Sequence record: MT833282.1
Length of the DNA: 64,000 nucleotides
Strand: one strand, 5' to 3'
From: Escherichia coli phage vB_EcoM_Shy
Shown one piece after another: positions 14,381-35,650 of this stretch. The notes beneath the pieces are model-generated. The model was given only the letters and a program-made list of their open reading frames with translations. It did not search any database and was not told the origin of the DNA. Both the position numbers and the translations under genes were made by a program. How positions within the stretch are numbered: position 1 is the stretch's first letter; each line of letters opens with the position of its first letter.

Positions 14381-14629
14381 ATGGCAACTATCCGCGCAAT
14401 TGTAAATTCTTATGGCTGCTACACTCTGGACGTTAAATTTGATATAGGTGGGACCGATGAGTGTTTCGAACTGGTGAAAACAGTCATTAAACAAGTTATC
14501 CCAGACTATAACCCTACTGATGACTTCTGGAAAGATGCAGTAAAAGAGGCGTTGAACGATGAATATCATTACCATTATTGGGGTGATTTGATTGTCTCCC
14601 TGTACTACAATAAACAAGGTTGCAACTAA
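14381..14629 (+). CDS. hypothetical early protein
   Basis: start re-assigned to the ATG after the conserved leader; the track ORF 14336-14629 starts inside the leader. Confidence 0.5.
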   Translation: MATIRAIVNSYGCYTLDVKFDIGGTDECFELVKTVIKQVIPDYNPTDDFWKDAVKEALNDEYHYHYWGDLIVSLYYNKQGCN

Positions 14630-14667
14630 TCGGCGCAACGGGGCTAAATAGCCCCAGATACCTTTAC

Positions 14668-14715
14668 AGCCCCTTTATATTGATTCGATAGAATCTATCT
14701 CATAGGGGCTTTTTT
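14668..14715 (+). terminator. rho-independent terminator closing the rightward early block
   Basis: long hairpin AGCCCCT...AGGGGCT enclosing palindrome GATAGAATCTATC, followed by TTTTTT. Confidence 0.6.
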
Positions 14716-16304
14716 ACGTCTTATCGAATACCTGTACAACCCTTTCCCTTTCCTTTCCAGAATCTATCCCACTGATTCGATAGTGATTCAGGTAATGAAT
14801 TACCTTCATAGAATCTATCTCATACCTTAAAAGCAATAACTCTATAGCTTACTCTATAGCCCCTTATCAAATCAACTTAAATATAAGCCCATAACCCGAA
14901 AGGGAAGGGCAACCATTTAAACGCTCTATAAAGCCCTATAACAGCCTTATCAACCTAACTTAAGGGATTGCATTACCTCACCCTTAAAATCCCTTTATAA
15001 AGCTTCCCAGAGCCTTAAAAGAATCTTATAAGGGTGTAAGCTTTATTATCTCGTTAGCTATCTTGTGAATGGTTAAACAACCCCTTGATAGTAACTGAAA
15101 AGTATGTTATAGGGGCTATAAAGTTACTTTGAAGTAGTTTAAAAGTTACTTAAAAGTTACGTAAATGCTAGCCCCCTTAACATTTTCTTAACAATTTCTT
15201 AACAAACCCTACATAGTTATGCTCTTAAGGCACTTGTTAGCAACTTGTTAGCCCCTTGTTAAATCTCTGTTAAAACCACGTAAAAGCCTTGTAAGAGTCT
15301 TTGGCATAGCCTTGAAAGCTTCTGTAAAGCCCTATAAATAGCTTTCTGTATAGTTGGGGTGTAATTACTAGAAAGAGACTAAAAAGAGCTTATAAGGAGC
15401 TATAAAGGGCTTTTAAGAGGGCTATTTAAAGAGTCACTAAGAGGGAAAGGGAACGATAAGAAAAGAGATAGTGACCATGTTAATAGCTTGTTAAAAAGAT
15501 TAAACACTTGTTAGGAACTTGTTAATTATCTTAACAAAATAACTCTTTAAAATTAACTTGTTAGCTCTTGTTAGTCATCTGTTAAGACTCTGTAAAGACT
15601 ATGCAGCAACTGTTAAGAAACTGTTAAGTTCTTGTTAGTTCTGTTAAGAATCTGTTAAGACCTCTGAAGAGATGTTAAGAAGATGTAGTAACTGTTAAGA
15701 GATTGTTAAGGATATTTTAAAATTCTGCAAAGGGGATGTTACAGGGATGTTAAGGGCTACCAAGCAGATATACATCTTCTACAGATATTTTTGAGTTCCT
15801 TCAAAGACCCTAAAAAATGACTTGATAGTCCTATTTTATAAAAATTTTAAAATTCTGAATAATTACCTATACAGTCTTTTAAAAATACAGGCATAAACAG
15901 GCTTATAAGATACCTTGTTAGTACCGTGTTAGACCTTGTGAGATAAGGTCTGTAAAGATATTCCTGTTAAGTTTGTTAAAACAGTCTATATAGAGGCTTA
16001 GTAATACCTAGTGAACACCTATAGAGGGTAACATAGCTGACATAGAGATTAAGGGGTGTATAGGAGCTTCTAAGAGGCTATAGAGAGATGGTTAAGGTGA
16101 TTGTATAGGTTGTTAAGAATGCTTGTTAGAAGAGTGTTTAGAAGGGCTATACAGAGGGGCTATTAAGACCACTAGATAGATACTAAGATACTATATAGTA
16201 CTATATAACTATATAGAGAGTAAGCTTAAGAAGGTTGTTAAGAAGGTTAGATATTTTATTCACATATGATGGTGACCCAGAGGTTGGGACAACCGATAAA
16301 ATTT
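14716..16304. repeat. 1.6-kb ORF-free repeat-dense region between convergent transcription units
   Basis: no ORF of 60 aa or more in any frame per the supplied track; several families of short repeats (CTATAAAG, AAAGTTAC, CTATATA, TTAAGAGGG, GGGCTA..TAGCCC palindromes). Confidence 0.7.
15186..15755. repeat. dense array of more than 20 short direct repeats with core TGTTA(A/G) (CTTGTTAG / CTGTTAAGA)
   Basis: e.g. ACTTGTTAGCAACTTGTTAGCCCCTTGTTAAATCTCTGTTAAAA and AACTGTTAAGAAACTGTTAAGTTCTTGTTAGTTCTGTTAAGAATCTGTTAAGA; spacing about 8-12 bp. Confidence 0.7.
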
Positions 16305-16335
16305 TATAAAAATTAAAAAGCCCCCAATTAAGGAG
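16305..16335 (-). terminator. putative terminator for the leftward block
   Basis: minus-strand hairpin CCTCC-TTAATT-GGGGG followed by CTTTTT, just downstream of the minus-strand gene ending at 16350. Confidence 0.4.
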
Positions 16336-16349
16336 GCTCTTAAGATATT

Positions 16350-16943
16350 TTAAATCAGTGTTTCCAGAACTGTCTTCAGTGATGACTTGGTTGTCTGATA
16401 AAAATGAGTGAATCCATTGTTGTTATCGAATACCTGCATCATGATATCATCTCCCTTGATTGGGTACACTCGGATATCATAGTGAAAACCATTAAAGACA
16501 CAAGAACCATTACAGAATGCACTAAAGTCATTCACTGAGATGTACTCTTCATGCCCTGTGATTTTTATACAGACACCTTTACTCGGTCTCTTAGGGTTGA
16601 TATCTTCCATCACAGACATATTCTGTCCACCAAGAGACACCATAGTGACCACTTTACGGTTCTTCTGTCTGAAGTACATCTTAACTTTCTGCAAAGTGTC
16701 TTCATAGAACGGATAAGACTTCTCTACAAAGATTCCTTCAAGTGGCTCTTTACCATTTTCAACTTCTCTGTTATGCCGTACTGCAAAGATAATTTGTTCA
16801 AACCAGTCAAGATTTTCTTCGGATAGTGCTTCTCGAATATCATTCCAGTCAAGGACTAGGTAGTTGCCTTCAACTTCTTTTAAGTTATCTTTTTCCATAT
16901 CTATCACACCATTATCGTAAAACTTGGTAATCTGGTACTGCAA
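16350..16943 (-). CDS. hypothetical protein
   Basis: 197-aa ORF; no confident motif. Confidence 0.5.
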   Translation of the reverse strand: MQYQITKFYDNGVIDMEKDNLKEVEGNYLVLDWNDIREALSEENLDWFEQIIFAVRHNREVENGKEPLEGIFVEKSYPFYEDTLQKVKMYFRQKNRKVVTMVSLGGQNMSVMEDINPKRPSKGVCIKITGHEEYISVNDFSAFCNGSCVFNGFHYDIRVYPIKGDDIMMQVFDNNNGFTHFYQTTKSSLKTVLETLI

Positions 16944-27040: not shown

Positions 27041-27117
27041 CTCTGTTTAGCTCAGCTTGGTAGAGCGTTCCGTTTGGGGCGGTAAGGTCGGAGGTTCAAG
27101 TCCTCCAACAGAGACCA
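27041..27117 (+). tRNA. tRNA-Pro (anticodon UGG)
   Basis: hand-folded cloverleaf: acceptor CTCTGTT/AACAGAG, D-arm GCTC..GAGC, anticodon loop TTTGGGG, T-arm GGAGG-TTCAAGT-CCTCC, CCA encoded. Confidence 0.7.
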
Positions 27118-27124
27118 AATTAAT

Positions 27125-27202
27125 GTTCCAGTAGACAAAATGGTAAAGTCACCACTCTTTCAAAGTGGATATTTGAGGGTTCAAATCCCTTCTGGAACGC
27201 CA
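27125..27202 (+). tRNA. tRNA-Glu (anticodon UUC)
   Basis: acceptor GTTCCAG/CTGGAAC, anticodon stem-loop CCACT-CTTTCAA-AGTGG, T-loop TTCAAAT. Confidence 0.7.
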
Positions 27203-27209
27203 GTTTTGA

Positions 27210-27282
27210 CAGAAGACCAATTACAGCAAGTTTAATCTTATTCATCTGACACGAAATCGGACAAAGAAGAGATTTGGTCTGG
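27210..27282 (+). ncRNA. structured spacer element A (CAGAAGACC...TwCAGCAA...GGTCTGG family)
   Basis: conserved 5' CAGAAGACCAATTACAGCAA and 3' TTGGTCTGG forming a 7-bp helix (AGACCAA/TTGGTCT); occupies the whole tRNA-Glu/tRNA-Met spacer. Confidence 0.45.
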
Positions 27283-27293
27283 TCATTAAGAAT

Positions 27294-27370
27294 TGCGGGT
27301 ATAGAGAAAGGGCGTCTCACATGTCTCATTAGCATGGTATCGGCAGGTTCGACTCCTGCACCCGCCTCCA
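27294..27370 (+). tRNA. tRNA-Met-like (anticodon CAU)
   Basis: anticodon stem-loop CATGT-CTCATTA-GCATG, T-arm GCAGG-TTCGACT-CCTGC, acceptor with mismatched first pair; Met versus Ile(CAU) not decidable by eye. Confidence 0.55.
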
Positions 27371-27376
27371 ATTTTG

Positions 27377-27436
27377 CAGAAGACCGTATTCAGCAACAAA
27401 CTACTTTTTGCGGATAAAAGAAAAAACACGGTCTGG
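27377..27436 (+). ncRNA. structured spacer element B (same family)
   Basis: CAGAAGACCGTATTCAGCAA ... ACGGTCTGG; helix AGACCGT/ACGGTCT shows compensatory changes relative to element A. Confidence 0.45.
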
Positions 27437-27447
27437 CAATGTATTAA

Positions 27448-27524
27448 GGTTAGGAAGCACATAAGGTATGTGCGGTCGCCTGTTAAGCGAATGGCACAGG
27501 GTTCGAATCCCTGACTAACCGCCA
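27448..27524 (+). tRNA. tRNA-Asn (anticodon GUU)
   Basis: D-arm GCAC..GTGC, anticodon loop CTGTTAA, T-arm CAGGG-TTCGAAT-CCCTG, CCA encoded. Confidence 0.7.
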
Positions 27525-27595
27525 AATTTAGGAGAGAAGCGATTGCTCACCGATTTGTAAGGTGCAAGTCCTTAGCCTGAATAGAATAATAAAAT

Positions 27596-27683
27596 GTGTC
27601 GTTATCCCGTAGATGGTAGCGGTGGGGACTGTAAATCCCTTGTCATTGAGACTCGGTAGGTTCGACTCCTACACGGCACACCA
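27596..27683 (+). tRNA. tRNA-Tyr (anticodon GUA), long variable arm
   Basis: acceptor GTGTCGT/ACGGCAC, anticodon loop CTGTAAA, 88 nt with extended variable arm, T-loop TTCGACT. Confidence 0.65.
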
Positions 27684-27689
27684 AATAAA

Positions 27690-27767
27690 GGTTATGTAGT
27701 TTAATCTGGTTAAAATACTCCCCTGTCACGGGAGATGATGAGGGTTCAAATCCCTTCGTAACCGCCA
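27690..27767 (+). tRNA. tRNA-Asp (anticodon GUC)
   Basis: acceptor GGTTATG/CGTAACC, anticodon stem-loop CTCCC-CTGTCAC-GGGAG, T-loop TTCAAAT. Confidence 0.7.
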
Positions 27768-27853
27768 AATTATAATAAGTATTTCAAAATGATGTTTGAG
27801 AGGGCTATTTAGCCCCTCCCTTAAAGAGTTCTTACGAGTATTCTTTAAAGGAG

Positions 27854-27926
27854 CAGAAGACCAAATTCAGCAAGAACGTATGAAATTTCAAGCCAATTTA
27901 ATTTTGAAAATTTAAACTTGGTCTGG
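27854..27926 (+). ncRNA. structured spacer element C (same family)
   Basis: CAGAAGACCAAATTCAGCAA ... CTTGGTCTGG, 7-bp helix AGACCAA/TTGGTCT. Confidence 0.45.
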
Positions 27927-27939
27927 CTCAACAAATTTA

Positions 27940-28071
27940 CAGAAGACCGTTTACAGCAAAACTTAAACAATCTATTTCTCCGGTAAAGAAAAGGCGAAGG
28001 TTCGATTCCTTCACTCGGCAGATGTCGAGTTGGTGTAATGGTAGCACTTAAGATGATAAACAATGGTCTGG
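27940..28071 (+). ncRNA. structured element D with circularly permuted tRNA-like domain (Y-RNA-like candidate)
   Basis: 5' CAGAAGACCGTTTACAGCAA and 3' CAATGGTCTGG helix enclose T-arm (GAAGG-TTCGATT-CCTTC, 27996-28012), closed acceptor-like hairpin (ACTCGGC-AGAT-GTCGAGT, 28013-28030) and D-arm (GTGT-AATGGTA-GCAC, 28033-28047); order is T-arm, acceptor, D-arm. Confidence 0.5.
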
Positions 28072-28072
28072 T

Positions 28073-28209
28073 AATTATCTTTGTAGATAAGTTATTAAGC
28101 TTCCCTGTGAGTATGCGACCACAAAGGTGAAAGGGTAGATTCTAGATTTAACCCGAAAAGACACATCGCTACAGACCTTAAGCAAGTCTGGGTAGCTTAT
28201 CTACAAAGA
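28073..28209 (+). ncRNA. long hairpin element E (18-bp perfect inverted repeat enclosing about 100 nt)
   Basis: ATTATCTTTGTAGATAAG (28073-28090) is the exact reverse complement of CTTATCTACAAAGATAAT (28192-28209); interior contains CAGACC..GTCTGG hairpin. Confidence 0.45.
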
Positions 28210-28218
28210 TAATTTAAT

Positions 28219-28294
28219 GGAAGTGTAGCAGAATGGTGATGCGGCAGACTTTTAATCTGACAGGCGATGGGTTCGAATCCCTCCACTTCTACCA
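28219..28294 (+). tRNA. tRNA-Lys (anticodon UUU)
   Basis: acceptor GGAAGTG/CACTTCT, anticodon loop CTTTTAA, T-loop TTCGAAT with weak T-stem; CCA encoded. Confidence 0.6.
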
Positions 28295-28298
28295 ATAT

Positions 28299-28375
28299 GG
28301 TTCAGTCGCAGATAAGGTAATGCAGGGGTTTCATAAGCCCTATGAATGTGGGTTCGATTCCCATCTGAACCTCCA
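28299..28375 (+). tRNA. tRNA with anticodon CAU (Met or Ile-lysidine type)
   Basis: acceptor GGTTCAG/CTGAACC, anticodon loop TTCATAA, T-arm GTGGG-TTCGATT-CCCAT. Confidence 0.6.
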
Positions 28376-28376
28376 A

Positions 28377-28452
28377 GCTGGTATAGTTAAGAAGGTTATA
28401 ACACTCCCCTGATAAGGGAATATCGGTGGTTCGATTCCACCTACCAGTACCA
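28377..28452 (+). tRNA. tRNA-Ile (anticodon GAU)
   Basis: anticodon loop CTGATAA, T-arm GGTGG-TTCGATT-CCACC, acceptor GCTGGTA/TACCAGT. Confidence 0.65.
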
Positions 28453-28476
28453 ATCTCAATAAAGTTGTTGACATTA

Positions 28477-28505
28477 AGATGTGACCACTTTATAGTAACT
28501 AAAAT
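28477..28505 (+). promoter_or_regulatory. sigma70-like promoter TTGACA-17-TATAGT inside the tRNA array
   Basis: consensus -35 and good -10; downstream 280 nt has no tRNA and no credible ORF. Confidence 0.5.
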
Positions 28506-28787
28506 ACTTCATAATATGTATAATTCAAACACCAATACATGAGCGTTAGACGTAACACAATGTGGGGAAATTTGTTGTACATATTCTGAATAGTTTTCGT
28601 TGCGTAGCGTCTATTTTGCAAATTTAAAATAAATGCAAACGACAATGTTTTCTGGCAGTAGCTTGATAGGCTAAACACCAGTGAGGTCTTCCAATCCCTC
28701 ATCAAAGAATTTGGCGTACTCGCCCACGGTATGATTAATAAGGTGGGCATCTTTAAGGGCTTTCTAAGAGAGCCTTTAAAGATTAAT

Positions 28788-28864
28788 GCACCCTTAGTTC
28801 AATTGGATAGAGCAACGGTCTTCTAAATCGTTAGTTACAGGTTCGAATCCTGTAGGGTGTGCCA
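28788..28864 (+). tRNA. tRNA-Arg (anticodon UCU)
   Basis: anticodon stem-loop ACGGT-CTTCTAA-ATCGT, T-arm ACAGG-TTCGAAT-CCTGT, acceptor GCACCCT/AGGGTGT. Confidence 0.65.
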
Positions 28865-29006
28865 AATAGTTAGCAGATTGCTTAGACGACCTTATCGGGT
28901 CTCCGTGTAAGGAGGTGGTCTGTATCTCATGTTTTCCAGAACATGTAAATAATCTGAGAAGGGGCTTTACAGTGTTGCGAAAATACGGTAAGCTTCGAAT
29001 TATAGT

Positions 29007-29089
29007 GTGGGACGATGTTAAGACTCTAAGGCATGAGCAACGGCCTCCAAAACCGTTTCAAAGGGGTTCAACTCCTCCGTCCCATGCCA
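29007..29089 (+). tRNA. atypical tRNA-like gene, possibly tRNA-Trp (anticodon CCA)
   Basis: acceptor GTGGGAC/GTCCCAT and T-arm AGGGG-TTCAACT-CCTCC fold well; anticodon loop CTCCAAA; D region is enlarged (83 nt total) so the call is tentative. Confidence 0.4.
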
Positions 29090-29102
29090 AAGTCTTATTA
29101 GG

Positions 29103-29190
29103 GGTAGGTAGCGGCTAATGGTAGCCAAACTGTCTTGAAAACAGTTGCCACTGTAGAGATACGGTGAGGGTTCGACTCCTTTACTTACCG
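29103..29190 (+). tRNA. tRNA-Ser (anticodon UGA), long variable arm
   Basis: anticodon stem-loop ACTGT-CTTGAAA-ACAGT, long variable arm, T-loop TTCGACT, acceptor GGTAGGT/ACTTACC. Confidence 0.65.
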
Positions 29191-29348
29191 CCTAATAAGA
29201 TTTTACACCGTCCATGCTTGCTCGCATTTTCGGTTTATCCCTCGTGTATTGTCGTACACACTGATAAAGCACCTAGTAGGTGTCACGGAGAAGAGATAAT
29301 ATCAAGCTCTCCAAAGGTTCTAGTCACCGGATTAAACAAGACTATGCA

Positions 29349-29370
29349 AAGACCTATTTAGGTCTTTTTA
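29349..29370 (+). terminator. rho-independent terminator-like hairpin within the tRNA array
   Basis: AAGACC-TATTTA-GGTCTT followed by TTTTT. Confidence 0.45.
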
Positions 29371-29448
29371 GAGGGCTTCTAAGGTTATTACAGCTTGTTG
29401 TGGAACCTTGTTGCTTAGGTTCTTAGAAGTTCTCTAAAAAGATTTAAT

Positions 29449-29526
29449 GGGAGATTGACGGTAATTGGTAAACCTACCATCCTTAGAAGTTGGTGTTTGA
29501 GGGTTCGAATCCCTTGTCTCCTACCA
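29449..29526 (+). tRNA. tRNA with Leu-type anticodon UAG, short variable arm (tentative Leu)
   Basis: acceptor GGGAGAT/GTCTCCT (two G-U pairs), anticodon loop CTTAGAA, T-arm GAGGG-TTCGAAT-CCCTT, A73, CCA encoded. Confidence 0.5.
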
Positions 29527-29533
29527 AATTAAT

Positions 29534-29609
29534 GCAGGTGTAGCAAAATGGTTATGCGGCTGACTCTTAATCAGTAAGACGATGGGTTCGAATCCCTCCA
29601 CCTGTACCA
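29534..29609 (+). tRNA. tRNA-Lys (anticodon CUU)
   Basis: paralogue of the 28219 tRNA; anticodon stem-loop CTGA-CTCTTAA-TCAG; same unusual T-stem. Confidence 0.6.
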
Positions 29610-29615
29610 AGCATT

Positions 29616-29692
29616 GGGGTCATAGTTTATATGGTTAAAATTCGAGTTTTGCAAACTTGGGAACTGAGTTCAATTCTCAGTGACTCCACCAA
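29616..29692 (+). tRNA. tRNA-Ala (anticodon UGC)
   Basis: acceptor GGGGTCA/TGACTCC with G3-U70, anticodon loop TTTGCAA, T-arm CTGAG-TTCAATT-CTCAG. Confidence 0.7.
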
Positions 29693-29698
29693 TTAGCG

Positions 29699-29773
29699 CA
29701 TCCATAGTTTAAACGGGAAAATTACAGTCTTCCAAACTGAGGTTGAGGGTTCGATTCCCTCTGGATGCTCCAA
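29699..29773 (+). tRNA. tRNA-Gly (anticodon UCC)
   Basis: acceptor GCATCCA/TGGATGC, anticodon loop CTTCCAA, T-arm GAGGG-TTCGATT-CCCTC. Confidence 0.7.
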
Positions 29774-29780
29774 ATTAATG

Positions 29781-29856
29781 CTCCTATCGTATAATTGGCT
29801 ATTACAGTTGCCTTGTAAGCAACTTATCAGGGTTCGAATCCTTGTGGGAGCACCAA
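29781..29856 (+). tRNA. tRNA-Thr (anticodon UGU)
   Basis: anticodon stem-loop GTTGC-CTTGTAA-GCAAC, T-loop TTCGAAT, acceptor GCTCCTA/TGGGAGC. Confidence 0.7.
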
Positions 29857-29951
29857 TTCAGAGGTCAAGTGAAAGACCGCTTTGAGTCAACTGAAGACCG
29901 TAACAAATTCCACGGAGTTGAGTTAGCGGCACAACTTCAGACCTCTTTCAT

Positions 29952-30026
29952 ACTCGCTTAGTTTATATGGTAAAACATCACCCTTACAAGATGAAGAAAA
30001 AGGTTCAAGTCCTTTAGTGAGTACCA
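29952..30026 (+). tRNA. tRNA-Val (anticodon UAC)
   Basis: anticodon loop CTTACAA, T-arm AAAGG-TTCAAGT-CCTTT, acceptor ACTCGCT/AGTGAGT. Confidence 0.6.
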
Positions 30027-30027
30027 T

Positions 30028-30105
30028 GTTCCAGTATCCCAATTGGCAGAGGATGCAAGCTCAAACCTTGTACTAGTGACGGTTCGAATCCGTCTTGGAA
30101 CACCA
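30028..30105 (+). tRNA. tRNA with Leu-type anticodon CAA, short variable arm (tentative Leu)
   Basis: acceptor GTTCCAG/TTGGAAC, anticodon stem-loop GCAAG-CTCAAAC-CTTGT, T-arm GACGG-TTCGAAT-CCGTC, A73. Confidence 0.5.
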
Positions 30106-30110
30106 ATTTT

Positions 30111-30186
30111 GCAGGATTAGTTCAAATGGATAGAGCAACAGTTTACGAAGCTGTTAATAGGGGTTCGAATCCCTTATCCTGCGCCA
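30111..30186 (+). tRNA. tRNA-Arg (anticodon ACG)
   Basis: acceptor GCAGGAT/ATCCTGC, anticodon stem-loop ACAGT-TTACGAA-GCTGT, T-loop TTCGAAT. Confidence 0.7.
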
Positions 30187-30205
30187 ATTTAAAGAGGCTA
30201 TTTAG

Positions 30206-30763
30206 ATGAGATATTTGAAGTATGCTTCATGGATTTTCTTAGCTTTGTTAGAGCCATTTGCAGCAATCTTAGCAGTTATCTTAGCACCTTTCGTAGTTCC
30301 ATTTTACAGTGAGAAGAAAGGACACTTACCTTTCGGATTTAGATGGATGGAGACATATGACAACCCTATTGATGGTGATGAAGGTCATATCGAACGATGG
30401 GCTAAGATTAGAAAGATTGGTAAGCTAGGTGTCTATATGCAGAGAGTCGGATGGCTCTGGAGAAACAAAGCTTATAACTTCTCCTACCATGTGTTAGGAA
30501 GAGATGTAAAAGATGTTACTAAGTGGAAAGGTAATATCAACGTAAGTTCTAACCCTAAAGATAATCAGACAGGTTATCTCCTAATGTGGAACAGTAATGC
30601 TTGGGGATTATTCGCTTTTATCCCATCAATTAAAGTCTTTGGTAAACAATTCTACTGGAGAATTTATGTTGGGTGGAAACTTAAAAGTGTTGTCCCAGAA
30701 GAAAGAGCATTCTCAAGGGAAAGAGTTATGTTGGCATTCTTTATTCATCCACTGAGAAAGTAA
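30206..30763 (+). CDS. membrane protein embedded in the tRNA array
   Basis: 185-aa ORF with AAAGAGG SD; N-terminal TM helix (WIFLALLEPFAAILAVILAPFVV), aromatic-rich. Confidence 0.5.
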   Translation: MRYLKYASWIFLALLEPFAAILAVILAPFVVPFYSEKKGHLPFGFRWMETYDNPIDGDEGHIERWAKIRKIGKLGVYMQRVGWLWRNKAYNFSYHVLGRDVKDVTKWKGNINVSSNPKDNQTGYLLMWNSNAWGLFAFIPSIKVFGKQFYWRIYVGWKLKSVVPEERAFSRERVMLAFFIHPLRK

Positions 30764-30771
30764 AGATTTAA

Positions 30772-30847
30772 AGGGGATTAGTTTACAAGGTTAAAACCTC
30801 GGTCTTTGAAATCGAAGAAGTTGGTTCAATTCCAACATCCCCCGCCA
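30772..30847 (+). tRNA. tRNA-Gln (anticodon UUG)
   Basis: anticodon stem-loop TCGGT-CTTTGAA-ATCGA, T-arm GTTGG-TTCAATT-CCAAC. Confidence 0.6.
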
Positions 30848-30849
30848 AT

Positions 30850-30926
30850 GCTCCATTACTCCAATTGGCAGAGGCCAGACTTAAAATCTGTGTTATGTAT
30901 CGGTTCGAATCCGATATGGAGTACCA
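30850..30926 (+). tRNA. tRNA with Leu-type anticodon UAA, short variable arm (tentative Leu)
   Basis: anticodon loop CTTAAAA, T-arm ATCGG-TTCGAAT-CCGAT, acceptor GCTCCAT/ATGGAGT, A73. Confidence 0.5.
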
Positions 30927-30931
30927 AATTT

Positions 30932-31007
30932 AGCGGTATAGCATAACTGGCAATGCAGCAGTCTCTGAAGCTGTCTTATTAAGGTTCAAATCCTTATGCC
31001 GCTGCCA
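30932..31007 (+). tRNA. tRNA-Gln (anticodon CUG)
   Basis: anticodon stem-loop GCAGT-CTCTGAA-GCTGT, T-loop TTCAAAT, acceptor AGCGGTA/TGCCGCT. Confidence 0.55.
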
Positions 31008-31038
31008 CTTCTAAGGATTCTTACGAGAGTCCTTAAAT

Positions 31039-31114
31039 GTGGCCTTATCATAAACGGTAATGACCCATGCTGTGAACATGGTCTATACGGGTTCAAATCC
31101 CGTAGGTCACCCCA
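31039..31114 (+). tRNA. tRNA-His (anticodon GUG)
   Basis: anticodon stem-loop CCATG-CTGTGAA-CATGG, T-arm ACGGG-TTCAAAT-CCCGT, acceptor GTGGCCT/AGGTCAC. Confidence 0.7.
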
Positions 31115-31119
31115 ATTTA

Positions 31120-31194
31120 TAGTCCAAGTAGCTTATATGGTTAAAGCGCGTGTCTGAAAAACATGAGAAGAGGGTTCAAATCCCACTGGACTAC
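31120..31194 (+). tRNA. tRNA-Phe (anticodon GAA)
   Basis: acceptor TAGTCCA/TGGACTA, anticodon loop CTGAAAA, T-loop TTCAAAT. Confidence 0.6.
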
Positions 31195-31212
31195 CAATTT
31201 CAAAGGTGCTTA

Positions 31213-31947
31213 ATGAAAGAGATGACAGAACAAGGTAAGGAGATTTTTAGTCTCTTAAAAACCGGTAGAGGGTTTTCTAATCCCCTTATTACTGGTGCAG
31301 CAGTTCTCGGTGGAACCGTAGCTGCCTCTACATCACTTGTAAGCTCTATTAGCTCTGTAACAGACCCTACAATAAAGGATAAACTTGTTGCTGCTGGACT
31401 TACAACAGTTCTGCTTAACAGCTTTACAACGAGTCTGACAAGCACTACATCGACTACTAAAACGCTGACAGATTATGGTCAAAAGTCTATTGATGAGTTT
31501 TCATCACGTATGCAGGTAGCAAAAGGATATTCCAATGTTATGGGTGCAGCAGGAGAACAAGTCGGTTGTACGCCATTTAGTGGTATTATGGGCGTTGCTA
31601 CAGAGTATGGTCAAAAAGCTATTGATACGATTAACAGTGCATTAGACGGTGTTAATGATGTATTAAGTGACTTACAAGACGCTATTGACAAAGGTCTTGA
31701 TACTATTTCTGATTTAGCTAACCAAGCTGTTAGTAAGATTAATGAAGGTATCTCGAAGATTACAGCTTATGCAGATGAAGTTGTGCAGATGATTGAAGAA
31801 GAAGCTGCCCTTATTGCAGAGTACCTTAAAACGAATATCAATGGGTTCTTAGCAGGTATCTTACCAGACTGGTTTGATGATGCTTGTAAAACTGGTGTAA
31901 TTGATACTATTGCAACACCAGAAATGAAGAACGCATTACAGAAATAA
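31213..31947 (+). CDS. hypothetical Ser/Thr-rich protein
   Basis: start re-assigned to ATG 31213 (the track start at 31150 lies inside tRNA-Phe); low-complexity S/T-rich centre; stop 1 nt before tRNA-Ser. Confidence 0.5.
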   Translation: MKEMTEQGKEIFSLLKTGRGFSNPLITGAAVLGGTVAASTSLVSSISSVTDPTIKDKLVAAGLTTVLLNSFTTSLTSTTSTTKTLTDYGQKSIDEFSSRMQVAKGYSNVMGAAGEQVGCTPFSGIMGVATEYGQKAIDTINSALDGVNDVLSDLQDAIDKGLDTISDLANQAVSKINEGISKITAYADEVVQMIEEEAALIAEYLKTNINGFLAGILPDWFDDACKTGVIDTIATPEMKNALQK

Positions 31948-31948
31948 T

Positions 31949-32041
31949 GGAAGATTAACCCTAAAAGGTAAGGGAGCAGTTTGCTAAACTGCCAGTAGCT
32001 GAGAAATCGGTGTACCAGTTCAAGTCTGGTATCTTCCTCCA
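31949..32041 (+). tRNA. tRNA-Ser (anticodon GCU), long variable arm
   Basis: acceptor GGAAGAT/ATCTTCC, anticodon stem-loop GCAGT-TTGCTAA-ACTGC, long variable arm, T-arm ACCAG-TTCAAGT-CTGGT. Confidence 0.75.
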
Positions 32042-32045
32042 ATTT

Positions 32046-32121
32046 GAATCCGTGACAGAAATGGCTATGTACCTGTCTGCAAAACAGGTTTATAAGGGTT
32101 CGAGTCCCTTCGGATTCTCCA
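32046..32121 (+). tRNA. tRNA-Cys (anticodon GCA)
   Basis: acceptor GAATCCG/CGGATTC, anticodon stem-loop CCTGT-CTGCAAA-ACAGG, T-arm AAGGG-TTCGAGT-CCCTT. Confidence 0.75.
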
Positions 32122-32343: not shown

Positions 32344-32544
32344 ATGAGCGAGACCGTTTATAAAGAACTTTATGAAGCTAATAAGAAGCTAGAATTTATG
32401 CAGAATACTATCATGGCAATTGCAGATAGATTGTCTGTAGCAACAGGTATTGATATCAAAGAAGCCTCTATGGATGCACTTCTTGATGCTGTTGATGCAA
32501 AGTTCGAAGTTAAGAAAGAAGAGACTGCTACAGACTCTGAATAA
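32344..32544 (+). CDS. small acidic protein upstream of large terminase (possible small terminase subunit)
   Basis: 66-aa ORF immediately before TerL; assignment by position only. Confidence 0.3.
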   Translation: MSETVYKELYEANKKLEFMQNTIMAIADRLSVATGIDIKEASMDALLDAVDAKFEVKKEETATDSE

Positions 32545-32565
32545 TTCTATTTGCGGAGGTGCTTA

Positions 32566-34167
32566 ATGGACTTAAATGCTGTTAAGCAGAAGCGAGTGGA
32601 AGATGTTAGGAAAGTCCTAGCTGGAGAGTTGGGGCTTTCTGATGAAGTAAAAGAAATTATCAAATCATTCGGTAAAGACCCCTCTAAATTCCTTCCAACT
32701 CAAATTCTGACTTTATTAAGATACACACCAGACCAAGTTAGACTTATCTTCAAATTGATGACTGATAAGAACTATGTAGCCCCTCAGCCGGGTTCTCAAG
32801 AGGTCTTTTTAAATACTAATGCTGACTTGGTTCTCTATGGTGGTGCTGCTGGTGCTGGTAAAACTGCTGCATTGTTAATGGACTCTTTAAGATTTATTGA
32901 AGACCCTAACTATAACGCTGTATATTTCCGTAGAAATACAACACAGTTACAAGGTGGTTTATGGCCTGCTGCAAAGAAACTATTTGGTAAGTTTGGTGGG
33001 GTTCCTCACGAGCAGAAGATGACTATCACATTCCCTTCTGGGGCAACTATCAAGTTCACCTACCTAGAACTTGAAAAGCACGCTGAAGGTCATCAGGGTA
33101 TTGAATACTCAGCTATCTACTTTGATGAAGGTACACACTTCTCTGCTTCACAGATTTCATACCTACAGACCCGTCTACGTTCTGGTGCTGAAGGTGACTC
33201 ATACATGAAGATTTCTATGAACCCAGATAGAGACCACTTCATTTATGATTGGGTAGAACCCTTCTTAGATGAAGAAGGTTACCCAGACCCTGAGAAGTGC
33301 GGTCGTATTCGTTGGTATGTTATGAATGATGGTGTGATGGTTTCTGATTGGGAAAGAGACAAGATTCTTGAAATGTTCCCTCTTGAGATTCCTCAGACAT
33401 ACACCTTCATCTCTGGTACGATTGATGATAACCCAATTCTTGACTTCTTAGAACCTAAATATCGTGGTAAGTTGGAAAACAACACACCTGTAAACGTTGC
33501 AAGACTTCGTTTCGGTAACTGGAAGGCTCGTGCAGAAGGTTCAAACTATTGGCAAAGACAATGGTGTGAGATTGTTGATTCACTCCCAGAAGATGTGTTT
33601 GATGTCAGAGCATGGGACTTAGCAGCAACTTTACCATCTGAGATTAACCCTAATCCAGACTGGACAGCGGGTGTTAAGATGGGTAAATCTAAAAAAGACG
33701 GTTGCTATTATATCATTGATGTAGTAAGATTTAGAGATAGACCCTCTGGAGTCGAAACACAAATTAATTTGACTGCTGAAAGTGACGGTAAGCGAACTGG
33801 TATTTTTATCCCTCAAGACCCAGGCGCTGCTGGTAAATCCTATGCAACATCCCTCATCAGGAAACTTGCCGAGAAAGGTTATCGCGCAAGAGCTAAACCA
33901 ACAAATAAAGATAAAGTTACCCGCTTTGCGGGATTTTCTGCTGCTTCTGAAGCTGGACTTGTAAAAGTCTTGAGAGGTAGCTGGAACGAAGCTTACTTCC
34001 AAGAACTTGAAGGTTTTTGTGGTGATGGCAAAACTAAAGATGACCAAGTGGATGCTACCAGTGATGCTTTCAACAGTCTTAATGAAGTTAAATTATTCAA
34101 GCCACCATCAATGGGTGCTCACACAGACTTAGTGAGAGGAAACCCATACGAGGGGCTTAGACGTTGA
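32566..34167 (+). CDS. terL: terminase large subunit
   Basis: Walker A VLYGGAAGAGKTAALL and Walker B-like IYFDEGTHF; start set to ATG 32566 after GGAGG SD (the track start 32551 is TTG). Confidence 0.9.
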   Translation: MDLNAVKQKRVEDVRKVLAGELGLSDEVKEIIKSFGKDPSKFLPTQILTLLRYTPDQVRLIFKLMTDKNYVAPQPGSQEVFLNTNADLVLYGGAAGAGKTAALLMDSLRFIEDPNYNAVYFRRNTTQLQGGLWPAAKKLFGKFGGVPHEQKMTITFPSGATIKFTYLELEKHAEGHQGIEYSAIYFDEGTHFSASQISYLQTRLRSGAEGDSYMKISMNPDRDHFIYDWVEPFLDEEGYPDPEKCGRIRWYVMNDGVMVSDWERDKILEMFPLEIPQTYTFISGTIDDNPILDFLEPKYRGKLENNTPVNVARLRFGNWKARAEGSNYWQRQWCEIVDSLPEDVFDVRAWDLAATLPSEINPNPDWTAGVKMGKSKKDGCYYIIDVVRFRDRPSGVETQINLTAESDGKRTGIFIPQDPGAAGKSYATSLIRKLAEKGYRARAKPTNKDKVTRFAGFSAASEAGLVKVLRGSWNEAYFQELEGFCGDGKTKDDQVDATSDAFNSLNEVKLFKPPSMGAHTDLVRGNPYEGLRR

Positions 34168-34183
34168 TAGCTAGGTGAGAAGA

Positions 34184-35650
34184 ATGGCAGAAATTACAGA
34201 AACACAAGAAAGCTTACCACCATTTAGAATGGGTGAAGTAGGCTCTTTGGGTCTGAAGGTTAAGAATGGTAGAATCTATGAAGAACCTCGTCAGGCACTA
34301 AGGTTCCCTGAAAGTATTAAAACTTTCCAATTAATGATGCGTGACCCTGCTGTAGCAGCATCTGTAAATATTATTAAGATGTTTGTCAGAAAAGTCAACT
34401 GGAGATTCGTACCTCCAAAGGGAAAAGAGCAAGACCCTAAAATGCTTGAAAGAGCAGACTTCTTTAATTCTTTAATGGATGACATGGAGCATGATTGGGC
34501 AGATTTTATTAACTCTGTAATGTCATTCTGCACTTATGGGTTCTGTGTTAACGAAAAGGTTTATAAGAAACGTCAGGGTAAAAAAGGAAAGTATCAGTCA
34601 AAATTTGATGATGGTCTAATTGGGTGGGCTAAATTACCAATCAGAAATCAATCAACGCTTGATAAGTGGTATTTTGACGAAGACTTTAGAAAAGTTACTG
34701 GTGTTAGACAAAATCTAAGAAATGTTTCACATATTGCTGGAGCAATTAATCTTGGGGAAAGACCACTAACAAGAAAACTTCCACGAGCTAAATTCATGCT
34801 GTTTAAGTATGATGATGAGTATGGTAACCCAGAAGGTCGTTCACCATTACTTAATGCTTATGTACCGTGGAAGTATAAAGTACAGATTGAAGAGTATGAA
34901 GCTGTTGGTGTTTCAAGAGACTTAGTAGGTATGCCAAAGATTGGTTTACCACCAGATTATCTGGATGAAAATGCAGAACCTGAAAAGAAAGCTTTCGTAC
35001 AATACTGCAAAACTGTTGTTAATGATATGATTGCTAACGACAGAGCAGGTTTAATCTGGCCTAGATATATCGACCCAGATACTAAAGAGGATATTTTTGA
35101 GTTCTCATTAGTTTCTAGACAGGGTGCTAAAGCGTATGACACAGGTTCTATCATTGACAGATATTCCAAGCAGATTATGATGGCATTTATGTCAGATGTT
35201 CTTGCTATGGGCCAATCAAAATATGGTTCATTCTCTCTTGCAGATTCTAAGACAAGCTTATTAGCAATGTCAGTAGATATTCTGCTGAAGCAAATTAAGA
35301 ACGTAATTAACCGTGACTTAGTTGCACAGACTTATGCTCTTAATATGTGGGATGATGAAGAACATGTACAAATCACATATGATGATATCGAAACTCCAGA
35401 CCTTGAAGCAATTGGTTCTTATATTCAGAAGACTGTTGCAGTAGGTGCTTTGGAAGTTGACAAAGAGCTATCTAATAAACTTAGAGAGCATATTGGTCTT
35501 CCTCCTGCTGATGAGTCTCAGCCAGTATCTGAAAAGCTTTCTCCAAATAGCCAAAGCCGTTCAGGAGATGGTTATAAGACCGCTGGAGAAGGTACTGCAA
35601 AGACACCTTCAGCGAAAGACCCAAGCACAGCAAATAAGGCAAATAAATAA
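34184..35650 (+). CDS. portal protein (probable)
   Basis: about 490-aa ORF immediately after TerL in the canonical order; start set to ATG 34184 (track start is GTG). Confidence 0.6.
   Translation: MAEITETQESLPPFRMGEVGSLGLKVKNGRIYEEPRQALRFPESIKTFQLMMRDPAVAASVNIIKMFVRKVNWRFVPPKGKEQDPKMLERADFFNSLMDDMEHDWADFINSVMSFCTYGFCVNEKVYKKRQGKKGKYQSKFDDGLIGWAKLPIRNQSTLDKWYFDEDFRKVTGVRQNLRNVSHIAGAINLGERPLTRKLPRAKFMLFKYDDEYGNPEGRSPLLNAYVPWKYKVQIEEYEAVGVSRDLVGMPKIGLPPDYLDENAEPEKKAFVQYCKTVVNDMIANDRAGLIWPRYIDPDTKEDIFEFSLVSRQGAKAYDTGSIIDRYSKQIMMAFMSDVLAMGQSKYGSFSLADSKTSLLAMSVDILLKQIKNVINRDLVAQTYALNMWDDEEHVQITYDDIETPDLEAIGSYIQKTVAVGALEVDKELSNKLREHIGLPPADESQPVSEKLSPNSQSRSGDGYKTAGEGTAKTPSAKDPSTANKANK

Follow-up and report, generated by a model that had tools for sequence, protein, structure and literature searches.

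Which function resides in the ~1.6 kb of the genome of Escherichia coli phage vB_EcoM_Shy (sequence record MT833282.1; hereafter Shy) that lie between two convergent gene blocks, hold no ORF of appreciable length, and are densely packed with short repeats? The region (positions 14716-16304) is part of a stretch of 64,000 nucleotides, which was analyzed as a whole (the window). Three candidates had been put forward in the original prediction: a replication origin, a packaging or partition-like site, or a cluster of small RNAs. Packaging is the one that the present analysis favors; the others found no such support, and it had gone unrecognized that the end of the chromosome probably lies here.

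Results

A conserved noncoding gap in Felix O1-like phages

The longest stretch of the window without an ORF (threshold, 60 codons) was 14639-16349 (1711 bp), about twice the length of the runner-up (844 bp, within the tRNA cluster), which bears out the notion that this gap is the only long one of its kind. The convergent terminators that had been proposed to bracket it were likewise recovered, the rightward and the leftward one both folding well and each being followed by a T-run (Table 1). In the rightward terminator (-18.1 kcal/mol, z -4.3), stem and T-run were kept in eight relatives, whereas its long loop is an indel. An exact 17-mer, ATAGAATCTATCTCATA, within this loop (14688-14704) recurs 120 bp downstream (14808-14824); the segment containing the 17-mer is an indel present in part of the relatives.

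When 14600-16400 was used as the BLAST query, 256 phage records were matched at 80-95% identity, nearly all from Felixounavirus or other Ounavirinae, with Escherichia, Salmonella, Shigella, and Citrobacter as hosts. The window is part of a Felixounavirus (Felix O1-like) genome, the full length of which is ~88 kb, and has ORFs of the size of rIIA and rIIB at its start. All relatives inspected lack annotation in the homologous stretch, which separates a rightward block of small genes without known function from a leftward one; in the window, the genes flanking the gap belong to PHROGs families without known function. Elsewhere in the window, 26 tRNA genes, all on the + strand, are clustered at 27041-32121, just upstream of the terminase gene. 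A counterpart of the injection-stop region of phage T5, which this number of tRNAs had suggested, was ruled out because BLAST assigned the DNA to Felixounavirus. The match of the large terminase subunit (TerL) begins at position 82 of the phrog_979 profile, and some relatives may possess an N-terminal extension. The window is also devoid of GATC (0 sites in 1-64000, versus 184 ± 11 expected from dinucleotide shuffles) and lacks many 6-bp palindromes, including GAATTC, CTGCAG, ATGCAT, and CAGCTG; restriction, Dam, and MutH sites are, thus, avoided to an extreme degree across its whole length.

Table 1. Features of the gap and of the terminase locus in the window.
Feature	Coordinates	Strand	Evidence and remarks
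Second conserved hairpin, GGGGCTAAATAGCCCC	~14639-14656		Just upstream of the rightward terminator
Rho-independent terminator	14668-14716	+	Closes the rightward gene block; stem 14668-14710, then T-run
Right-end unique DNA, noncoding	14716-15170		Predicted to lie just inside the right-hand DTR copy in virion DNA; conserved across genera
Hairpin GCCC-ATAA-CCC-GAAA-GGG-AA-GGGC	14887-14910	+	Fold -11.6 kcal/mol, z -2.5
AAGTTAC-type array, 11-bp period	15120-15165	+	Abuts the left DTR boundary; Tandem Repeats Finder, 4.2 copies
Predicted direct terminal repeat (DTR), 591 bp	15171-15761		Boundaries ±2 nt; record ends of relatives and alignment of the UAB_69 DTR
Three inverted heptamers CTTAACA, 11-bp spacing	15177-15204	-	Immediately inside the left boundary; two of three kept in 8/8 relatives
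Four direct TGTTAR, 11-bp spacing	15235-15273	+	Face the three inverted copies across a ~30-bp gap
Main array, 16 direct and 1 inverted TGTTAR	15478-15753	+	10.30-bp phase
Perfect palindrome TTGTTAA-TTATC-TTAACAA	15519-15537	.	Two heptamers head to head; within an invariant 30-nt block (15518-15547)
Invariant 22-mer AGGGCTACC^AAGCAGATATACA	15753-15774	.	Spans the right DTR boundary (^)
Left-end unique DNA, noncoding	15762-16304		Predicted to lie just inside the left-hand DTR copy in virion DNA
Rho-independent terminator	16306-16341	-	Closes the leftward gene block; stem 16341-16316, then T-run; -15.2 kcal/mol
66-aa ORF	32344-32544		Immediately upstream of terL; phrog_4397
terL, large terminase subunit	32551-34167	+	phrog_979, E 1e-233
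Portal gene	34175-35650		Directly after terL; phrog_113

The gap probably contains the ends of the chromosome

Experiments on close relatives of Shy had already shown that Felixounavirus genomes end in a direct terminal repeat (DTR). For UAB_Phi87, a Bal31 time course together with sequencing run-off demonstrated a DTR of 608 bp, cohesive ends having been excluded by a heat test (PMC4837284); for Pr103Blw, one of 581 bp was determined with PhageTerm (PMC8303462); and the 618-bp DTR of Salmonella phage UAB_69, another Felixounavirus, is printed in a supplementary figure (PMC11350853). TerL of Felix O1-like phages was placed in a DTR cluster by Bardina et al (PMC4837284).

The DTR of UAB_69 aligned end to end with 15169-15763 of the window, 540 of 621 columns being identical. 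Three deposited genomes carry exact repeats at both ends of the record (ZX4221, 591 bp; D4, 581 bp; CRP22, 579 bp), which begin with GCCCCCTTAACA (window 15171) and end with GGGCTACC (window 15761), and at least eight records start or stop at homologues of 15171 or 15761. By homology with the records of these three relatives, the same sequence should be present at both ends of the Shy virion DNA; its termini were placed on the basis of 93-96% identity to phages with mapped ends. From the alignment and the record ends it follows that the interval originally singled out as the densest in repeats (15186-15755) is, in all probability, the DTR, collapsed to a single copy by assembly. As this interval coincides almost base for base with the mapped repeat, the gap would be the place where terminase cuts concatemers. 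The sequence comparisons make it highly probable that the region comprises the DTR and the genome ends, and very likely that DTR and concatemer junction are to be found here.

The boundaries deduced for UAB_69 (from run-off sequencing) and for Erwinia phage M7 (from the deposited genome) lie somewhat further out than those of ZX4221, D4, and CRP22, by 2-3 nt on the left and by 2 nt on the right. This offset (15169-15171 and 15761-15763, respectively) could be due to artefacts of the methods or to staggered cuts. On either side, boundaries obtained with PhageTerm and those from run-off disagree by 2 nt. The left boundary is situated within ACGTAAA-GCTA^GCCCCCTTAACA; the right one is spanned by an invariant 22-mer (Table 1), presumed to be the cutting or recognition sequence of the terminase, the core of which, A(A)G(C/T)AGATATACA, is kept in Erwinia phages.

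When genomes of different genera were compared, 88-91% of the length of the gap could be aligned (76-79% identity), versus 31-61% of that of the flanking genes, which indicates that the whole junction is under selection as DNA. On the right-end side (14716-15170), where TGTTAR is absent (0 copies) and CTATA(A/G)AG-type repeats are present, a 33-nt block (14880-14912) holding the hairpin listed in Table 1 was invariant in 8/8 aligned relatives from three genera; it is located ~270 bp before the left DTR boundary. A similar element, AACCC-CACA-GGGAA, occurs at a comparable distance in Erwinia phage phiEa104 (~2354-2370 of locus L014). The left-end side (15762-16304) contains 7 copies of TGTTAR, an invariant AT-rich block (15831-15849), and CTATATAG repeats at 16189-16219. 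The latter belong to a second, self-complementary repeat family, CT-N-TA-N-AG (CTATAAAG, CTATAGAG, CTATATAG), which spans 14840-16216. With 16 copies in the gap versus 52 in the other 62 kb, this family is ~12-fold enriched, and CTATA(A/G)AG is even ~90-fold enriched; the CT-N-TA-N-AG copies are mainly found in the flanks and in the heptamer-free center of the DTR.

Heptamers within the repeat are phased on one face of the helix

The repeats that had drawn attention to the region were described originally as more than 20 copies of (C)TTGTTAG / CTGTTAAGA, spaced at about 8-12 bp within 15186-15755. This description proved accurate: 24 copies of the TGTTA(A/G) heptamer (20 forward, 4 inverted) were found in the core (15177-15753), mostly 9-11 bp apart, and the motif agrees with the extended consensus cT-TGTTAAGA. 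Another seven copies are located at 15916-16241, so the gap contains 31. The forward-strand density in the core amounted to 34/kb, compared with 1.1/kb in the rest of the window (~30-fold). Fifteen of the 23 spacings between neighbors in the core were 9-11 bp, the others being 20, 20, 20, 28, 31, 36, 44, and 210 bp. Identical 5-mers were found 76 times at a lag of 11 bp, versus 3.0 expected (z 32, 25-fold); a lag of 31 bp (z 15) and lags of 20-22 and 42 bp were likewise enriched. When the 64-kb window was examined in bins of 200 bp, no signal of comparable strength appeared elsewhere.

The heptamer starts of the main array followed a period of 10.30 bp (Rayleigh R = 0.84, a value reached by 0 of 500 random placements). 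Over the whole DTR, as well as over the whole gap, the period was 10.42 bp, which was again equaled by 0/500 random placements. Since the spacings of 11 bp are offset by others of 9, 10, 20, and 31 bp, the heptamers stay on one face of the helix, over a distance of up to 1 kb. Four of the five relatives tested had the phase of Shy; it amounted to 10.4-10.5 bp in SUSP1, Henu11, Meda, and Bas63 and to 10.16 bp in Maleficent, whereas the best phase in phiEa104 was 11.4 bp rather than 10.4 bp.

When eight phages belonging to three genera were aligned, 90% of the heptamer columns within the DTR proved invariant, compared with 56% of the spacer columns. At least four genera of the Ounavirinae, among them that of Erwinia phage M7, have kept the array and the sequences at the left and the right boundary. 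Within the DTR of Shy, the first heptamer begins 6 bp from the left boundary and the last one stops 8 bp short of the right boundary, that is, the repeats stand beside the presumed cleavage positions, as in an array recognized by a terminase. The published accounts of UAB_Phi87, UAB_69, and Pr103Blw give the repeat and its length, and a phased heptamer array is not described in the passages searched. The array on one helix face and the conservation of motif and boundaries throughout the subfamily are a descriptive addition to a known DTR.

A model for the concatemer junction

Short-DTR phages such as T7 have one copy of the repeat per concatemer junction, and the terminase cuts at both of its boundaries. 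Were the same true for Shy, the virion DNA would be linear, running from ~15171 rightward through the genome to ~15761, with 15171-15761 present at both ends. In the concatemer, the right-end unique DNA (14716-15170) would be followed by one DTR copy and this by the left-end unique DNA (15762-16304), and transcription of the convergent gene blocks would be halted short of the junction by the strong terminators on either side. Cleavage at the DTR boundaries is expected to be the task of TerL; the terminase would recognize the junction and cut at the two conserved boundary sequences, the DTR being duplicated during packaging in the manner of T7. The copies of the DTR, in turn, would allow progeny genomes to concatenate, via recombination or annealing.

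The phased heptamers would serve as a binding platform in this process, the bound protein marking or bending the junction for the packaging machinery. Their anatomy suggests that they are set out for wrapping around a protein or for cooperative binding, and candidates for the binder would be an accessory DNA-binding protein and a recognition subunit resembling a small terminase. That the array is a protein-binding platform used in packaging is proposed tentatively, with its chances put a little short of even. A more far-reaching version, in which the phased TGTTAAG array is a previously undescribed cis-acting assembly platform where a so-far unrecognized phage protein defines the ends, we regard as rather unlikely; such a platform might double as a site of end protection or replication priming. 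If this version were true, a packaging signal would for the first time have been defined for myoviruses with short DTRs.

A small terminase (TerS) is not annotated in Felix O1-like phages, and PHROGs scans of 20 window ORFs, located near the gap and near terL, recognized neither TerS nor a helix-turn-helix protein. The 66-aa ORF immediately upstream of terL was rejected as the heptamer binder because its product is acidic and predicted to fold into a two-helix hairpin (pLDDT 83), which does not look like a DNA binder. For the TerS of an unrelated contig with a TGTTAAG cluster (see below), no homologue was found in the window. The PhageMaP paper, which deals with phage Bas63, contains no intergenic data for the gap.

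Alternative functions of the heptamer array

Rather than a packaging signal, the heptamers might be an architectural or protective element of the ends: their DNA may be intrinsically curved, or they may be bound by a nucleoid protein of the host or by a phage protein that is injected. Conceivable tasks of such a protein would be to protect the ends against RecBCD, to govern ejection, or to favor end-to-end recombination. Phasing on one helix face is typical of curved or wrapped DNA, and the fact that the heptamer is common to phages of Escherichia, Salmonella, Citrobacter, and Erwinia would fit a conserved host or virion protein. The window lacks Chi sites (0), and the authors of the PhageMaP study speculate that Bas63 is without a RecBCD inhibitor. 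However, the array is asymmetric in that it continues into unique DNA at the left end alone, and IHF consensus sites occur at chance level (8 in the window versus 6.3 expected; one in the gap). Pairs of heptamers do resemble the IHF consensus but mismatch its core, and IHF sites were, with counts at chance, discarded as an explanation. We know of no host factor that recognizes TGTTAAG, which also speaks against this role. Architecture or end protection is, thus, of fairly low probability but a real alternative, which sequence alone cannot separate from a role in packaging.

Less probable still is that the array represents the iterons of a replication origin, to which an initiator binds in order to melt an AT-rich element nearby, although this would be compatible with a terminal repeat because origins and chromosome ends can coexist. 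The array does consist of many phased direct repeats, the invariant AT-rich block (15831-15849) is only ~70 bp away from it, and there is one perfect match to the DnaA box (16256-16264). Moreover, the junction of T7 is flanked, according to its annotation, by the promoters phiOL and phiOR, which serve as secondary origins. This match is, however, the only DnaA box in the gap, the total for the window (7) is below that expected by chance (10.5), and no initiator-like gene is located beside the gap. Cumulative GC skew, which had been recommended for locating an origin, merely tracked gene orientation and had a local maximum, not a minimum, at the gap. In addition, the limits of the array coincide with the mapped chromosome ends, which a role in packaging explains directly.

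It is very improbable that small RNAs or very small proteins are encoded in the gap and that the repeats are incidental. The invariant hairpin (14887-14910) would be in line with such a coding role, and some GenBank records (e.g., that of Meda) annotate "hypothetical proteins" of 30-55 codons within the gap, but no ORF of at least 30 codons is found at the same position across eight relatives, with Bas63 having none at all, and each of the six frames contains 39-56 stop codons. Neither an RNA family nor promoter-terminator units emerged: Rfam yielded no match at E <= 1, except for one subthreshold leader match on the terminator, and promoter-like sites were at chance level (16 versus 12.1 ± 3.6). 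Finally, a parS-like partition centromere, for which short repeated sites clustered in an array would speak, can practically be dismissed, given that the phage is a virulent myovirus, that ParA/ParB genes are absent beside the gap and among the 20 window ORFs scanned, and that the array coincides with the chromosome ends; from the packaging or partition-like site of the original prediction, therefore, the packaging half is retained, the array corresponding to the mapped DTR.

Discussion

Felix O1-like phages are widely used for biocontrol and typing of Salmonella and E. coli. For annotators, the position of the real chromosome ends matters for genome orientation, for coverage plots, and for engineering, as inserts must respect the junction. 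The heptamer array on one helix face, together with the invariant boundaries, is a specific candidate, amenable to testing, for the packaging signal in these phages.

The DTRs of UAB_Phi87, UAB_69, and Pr103Blw resemble that of Shy in sequence, boundaries, position between convergent gene blocks, and heptamer content, and differ from it by strain divergence only (~87-96% identity). More distant are the Erwinia phages of the genus Kolesnikvirus, which share the syntenic gap and the heptamer. For one of them, vB_EamM-M7, the boundaries were predicted from the conserved motifs, and the deposited genome then proved to carry a DTR at the homologous positions. This exact 444-bp repeat starts with TTAGCCAC, a homologue of TAGCCCCC, and stops immediately ahead of G(T/C)AGATATACA (GTAGATATACA), the homologue of the right boundary in Shy. 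It contains 16 copies of TGTTAR (11 direct, 5 inverted) and is shorter than the DTR of Shy; beyond motifs and boundaries, the rest of its gap cannot be aligned with the window. A different, TTCTAAG-type repeat is found in the left flank, and the phase in the related phiEa104 is 11.4 bp.

Iteron origins, such as lambda ori, P1 oriR, and those of plasmids, also consist of short direct repeats, which are sometimes helically phased. They have an adjacent initiator gene, DnaA boxes, and an unwinding element, whereas the gap of Shy has neither an adjacent initiator nor an enrichment of DnaA boxes. Terminase recognition arrays are represented by cosB of lambda (R sites plus an IHF bend), pacL and pacR of SPP1, and pac of P1 (repeated hexamers). 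As in Shy, several short repeats lie near the site of cleavage in these phages, where they are thought to wrap or bend the DNA around an oligomeric small terminase. In lambda, SPP1, and P1, a known TerS binds the sites and the ends are cohesive or generated by headful packaging; in Shy, no TerS was recognized and the ends are predicted to be exact repeats.

The junction of T7 resembles that of Shy in that a short, exact, noncoding DTR (160 bp) is accompanied by ~22 CMTAAAG heptamers in or beside the repeat, mostly on the left-end side; these flanking arrays were reportedly named SRL and SRR by Dunn and Studier. The T7 heptamers differ in being spaced at 13 bp, which is not the helical repeat, and in a motif unlike TGTTAR. 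Furthermore, T7 possesses promoters at its junction (phiOL, phiOR, and A0-A3) and is transcribed inward from the left end, whereas in Shy, transcription of both neighboring gene blocks runs toward the ends and is terminated ahead of the junction. To our knowledge, the function of the T7 heptamers was never settled, so the analogy with T7 is no proof of a role in packaging.

A scan of IMG/VR, for which three copies of TGTTAAG at the spacings of the Shy array served as the query, returned 25 contigs from Ounavirinae and two unrelated ones. In one of the latter (L028, 981-1030), a similar four-copy cluster lies in a divergent intergenic region. The other (IMGVR_UViG_3300045733_000659; L032, 7160-10382; 33% GC) contains four copies of TGTTAAG at spacings of 11, 20, and 11 bp. 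These copies lie in ~1 kb of repeat-rich DNA that is free of ORFs and directly precedes terS (phrog_309) and terL, and in this contig the nuclease domain of TerL is related to that of Shy TerL. By analogy, both the heptamers of T7 and the cluster preceding terS and terL in this contig fit the notion that the heptamers of Shy are recognized in packaging.
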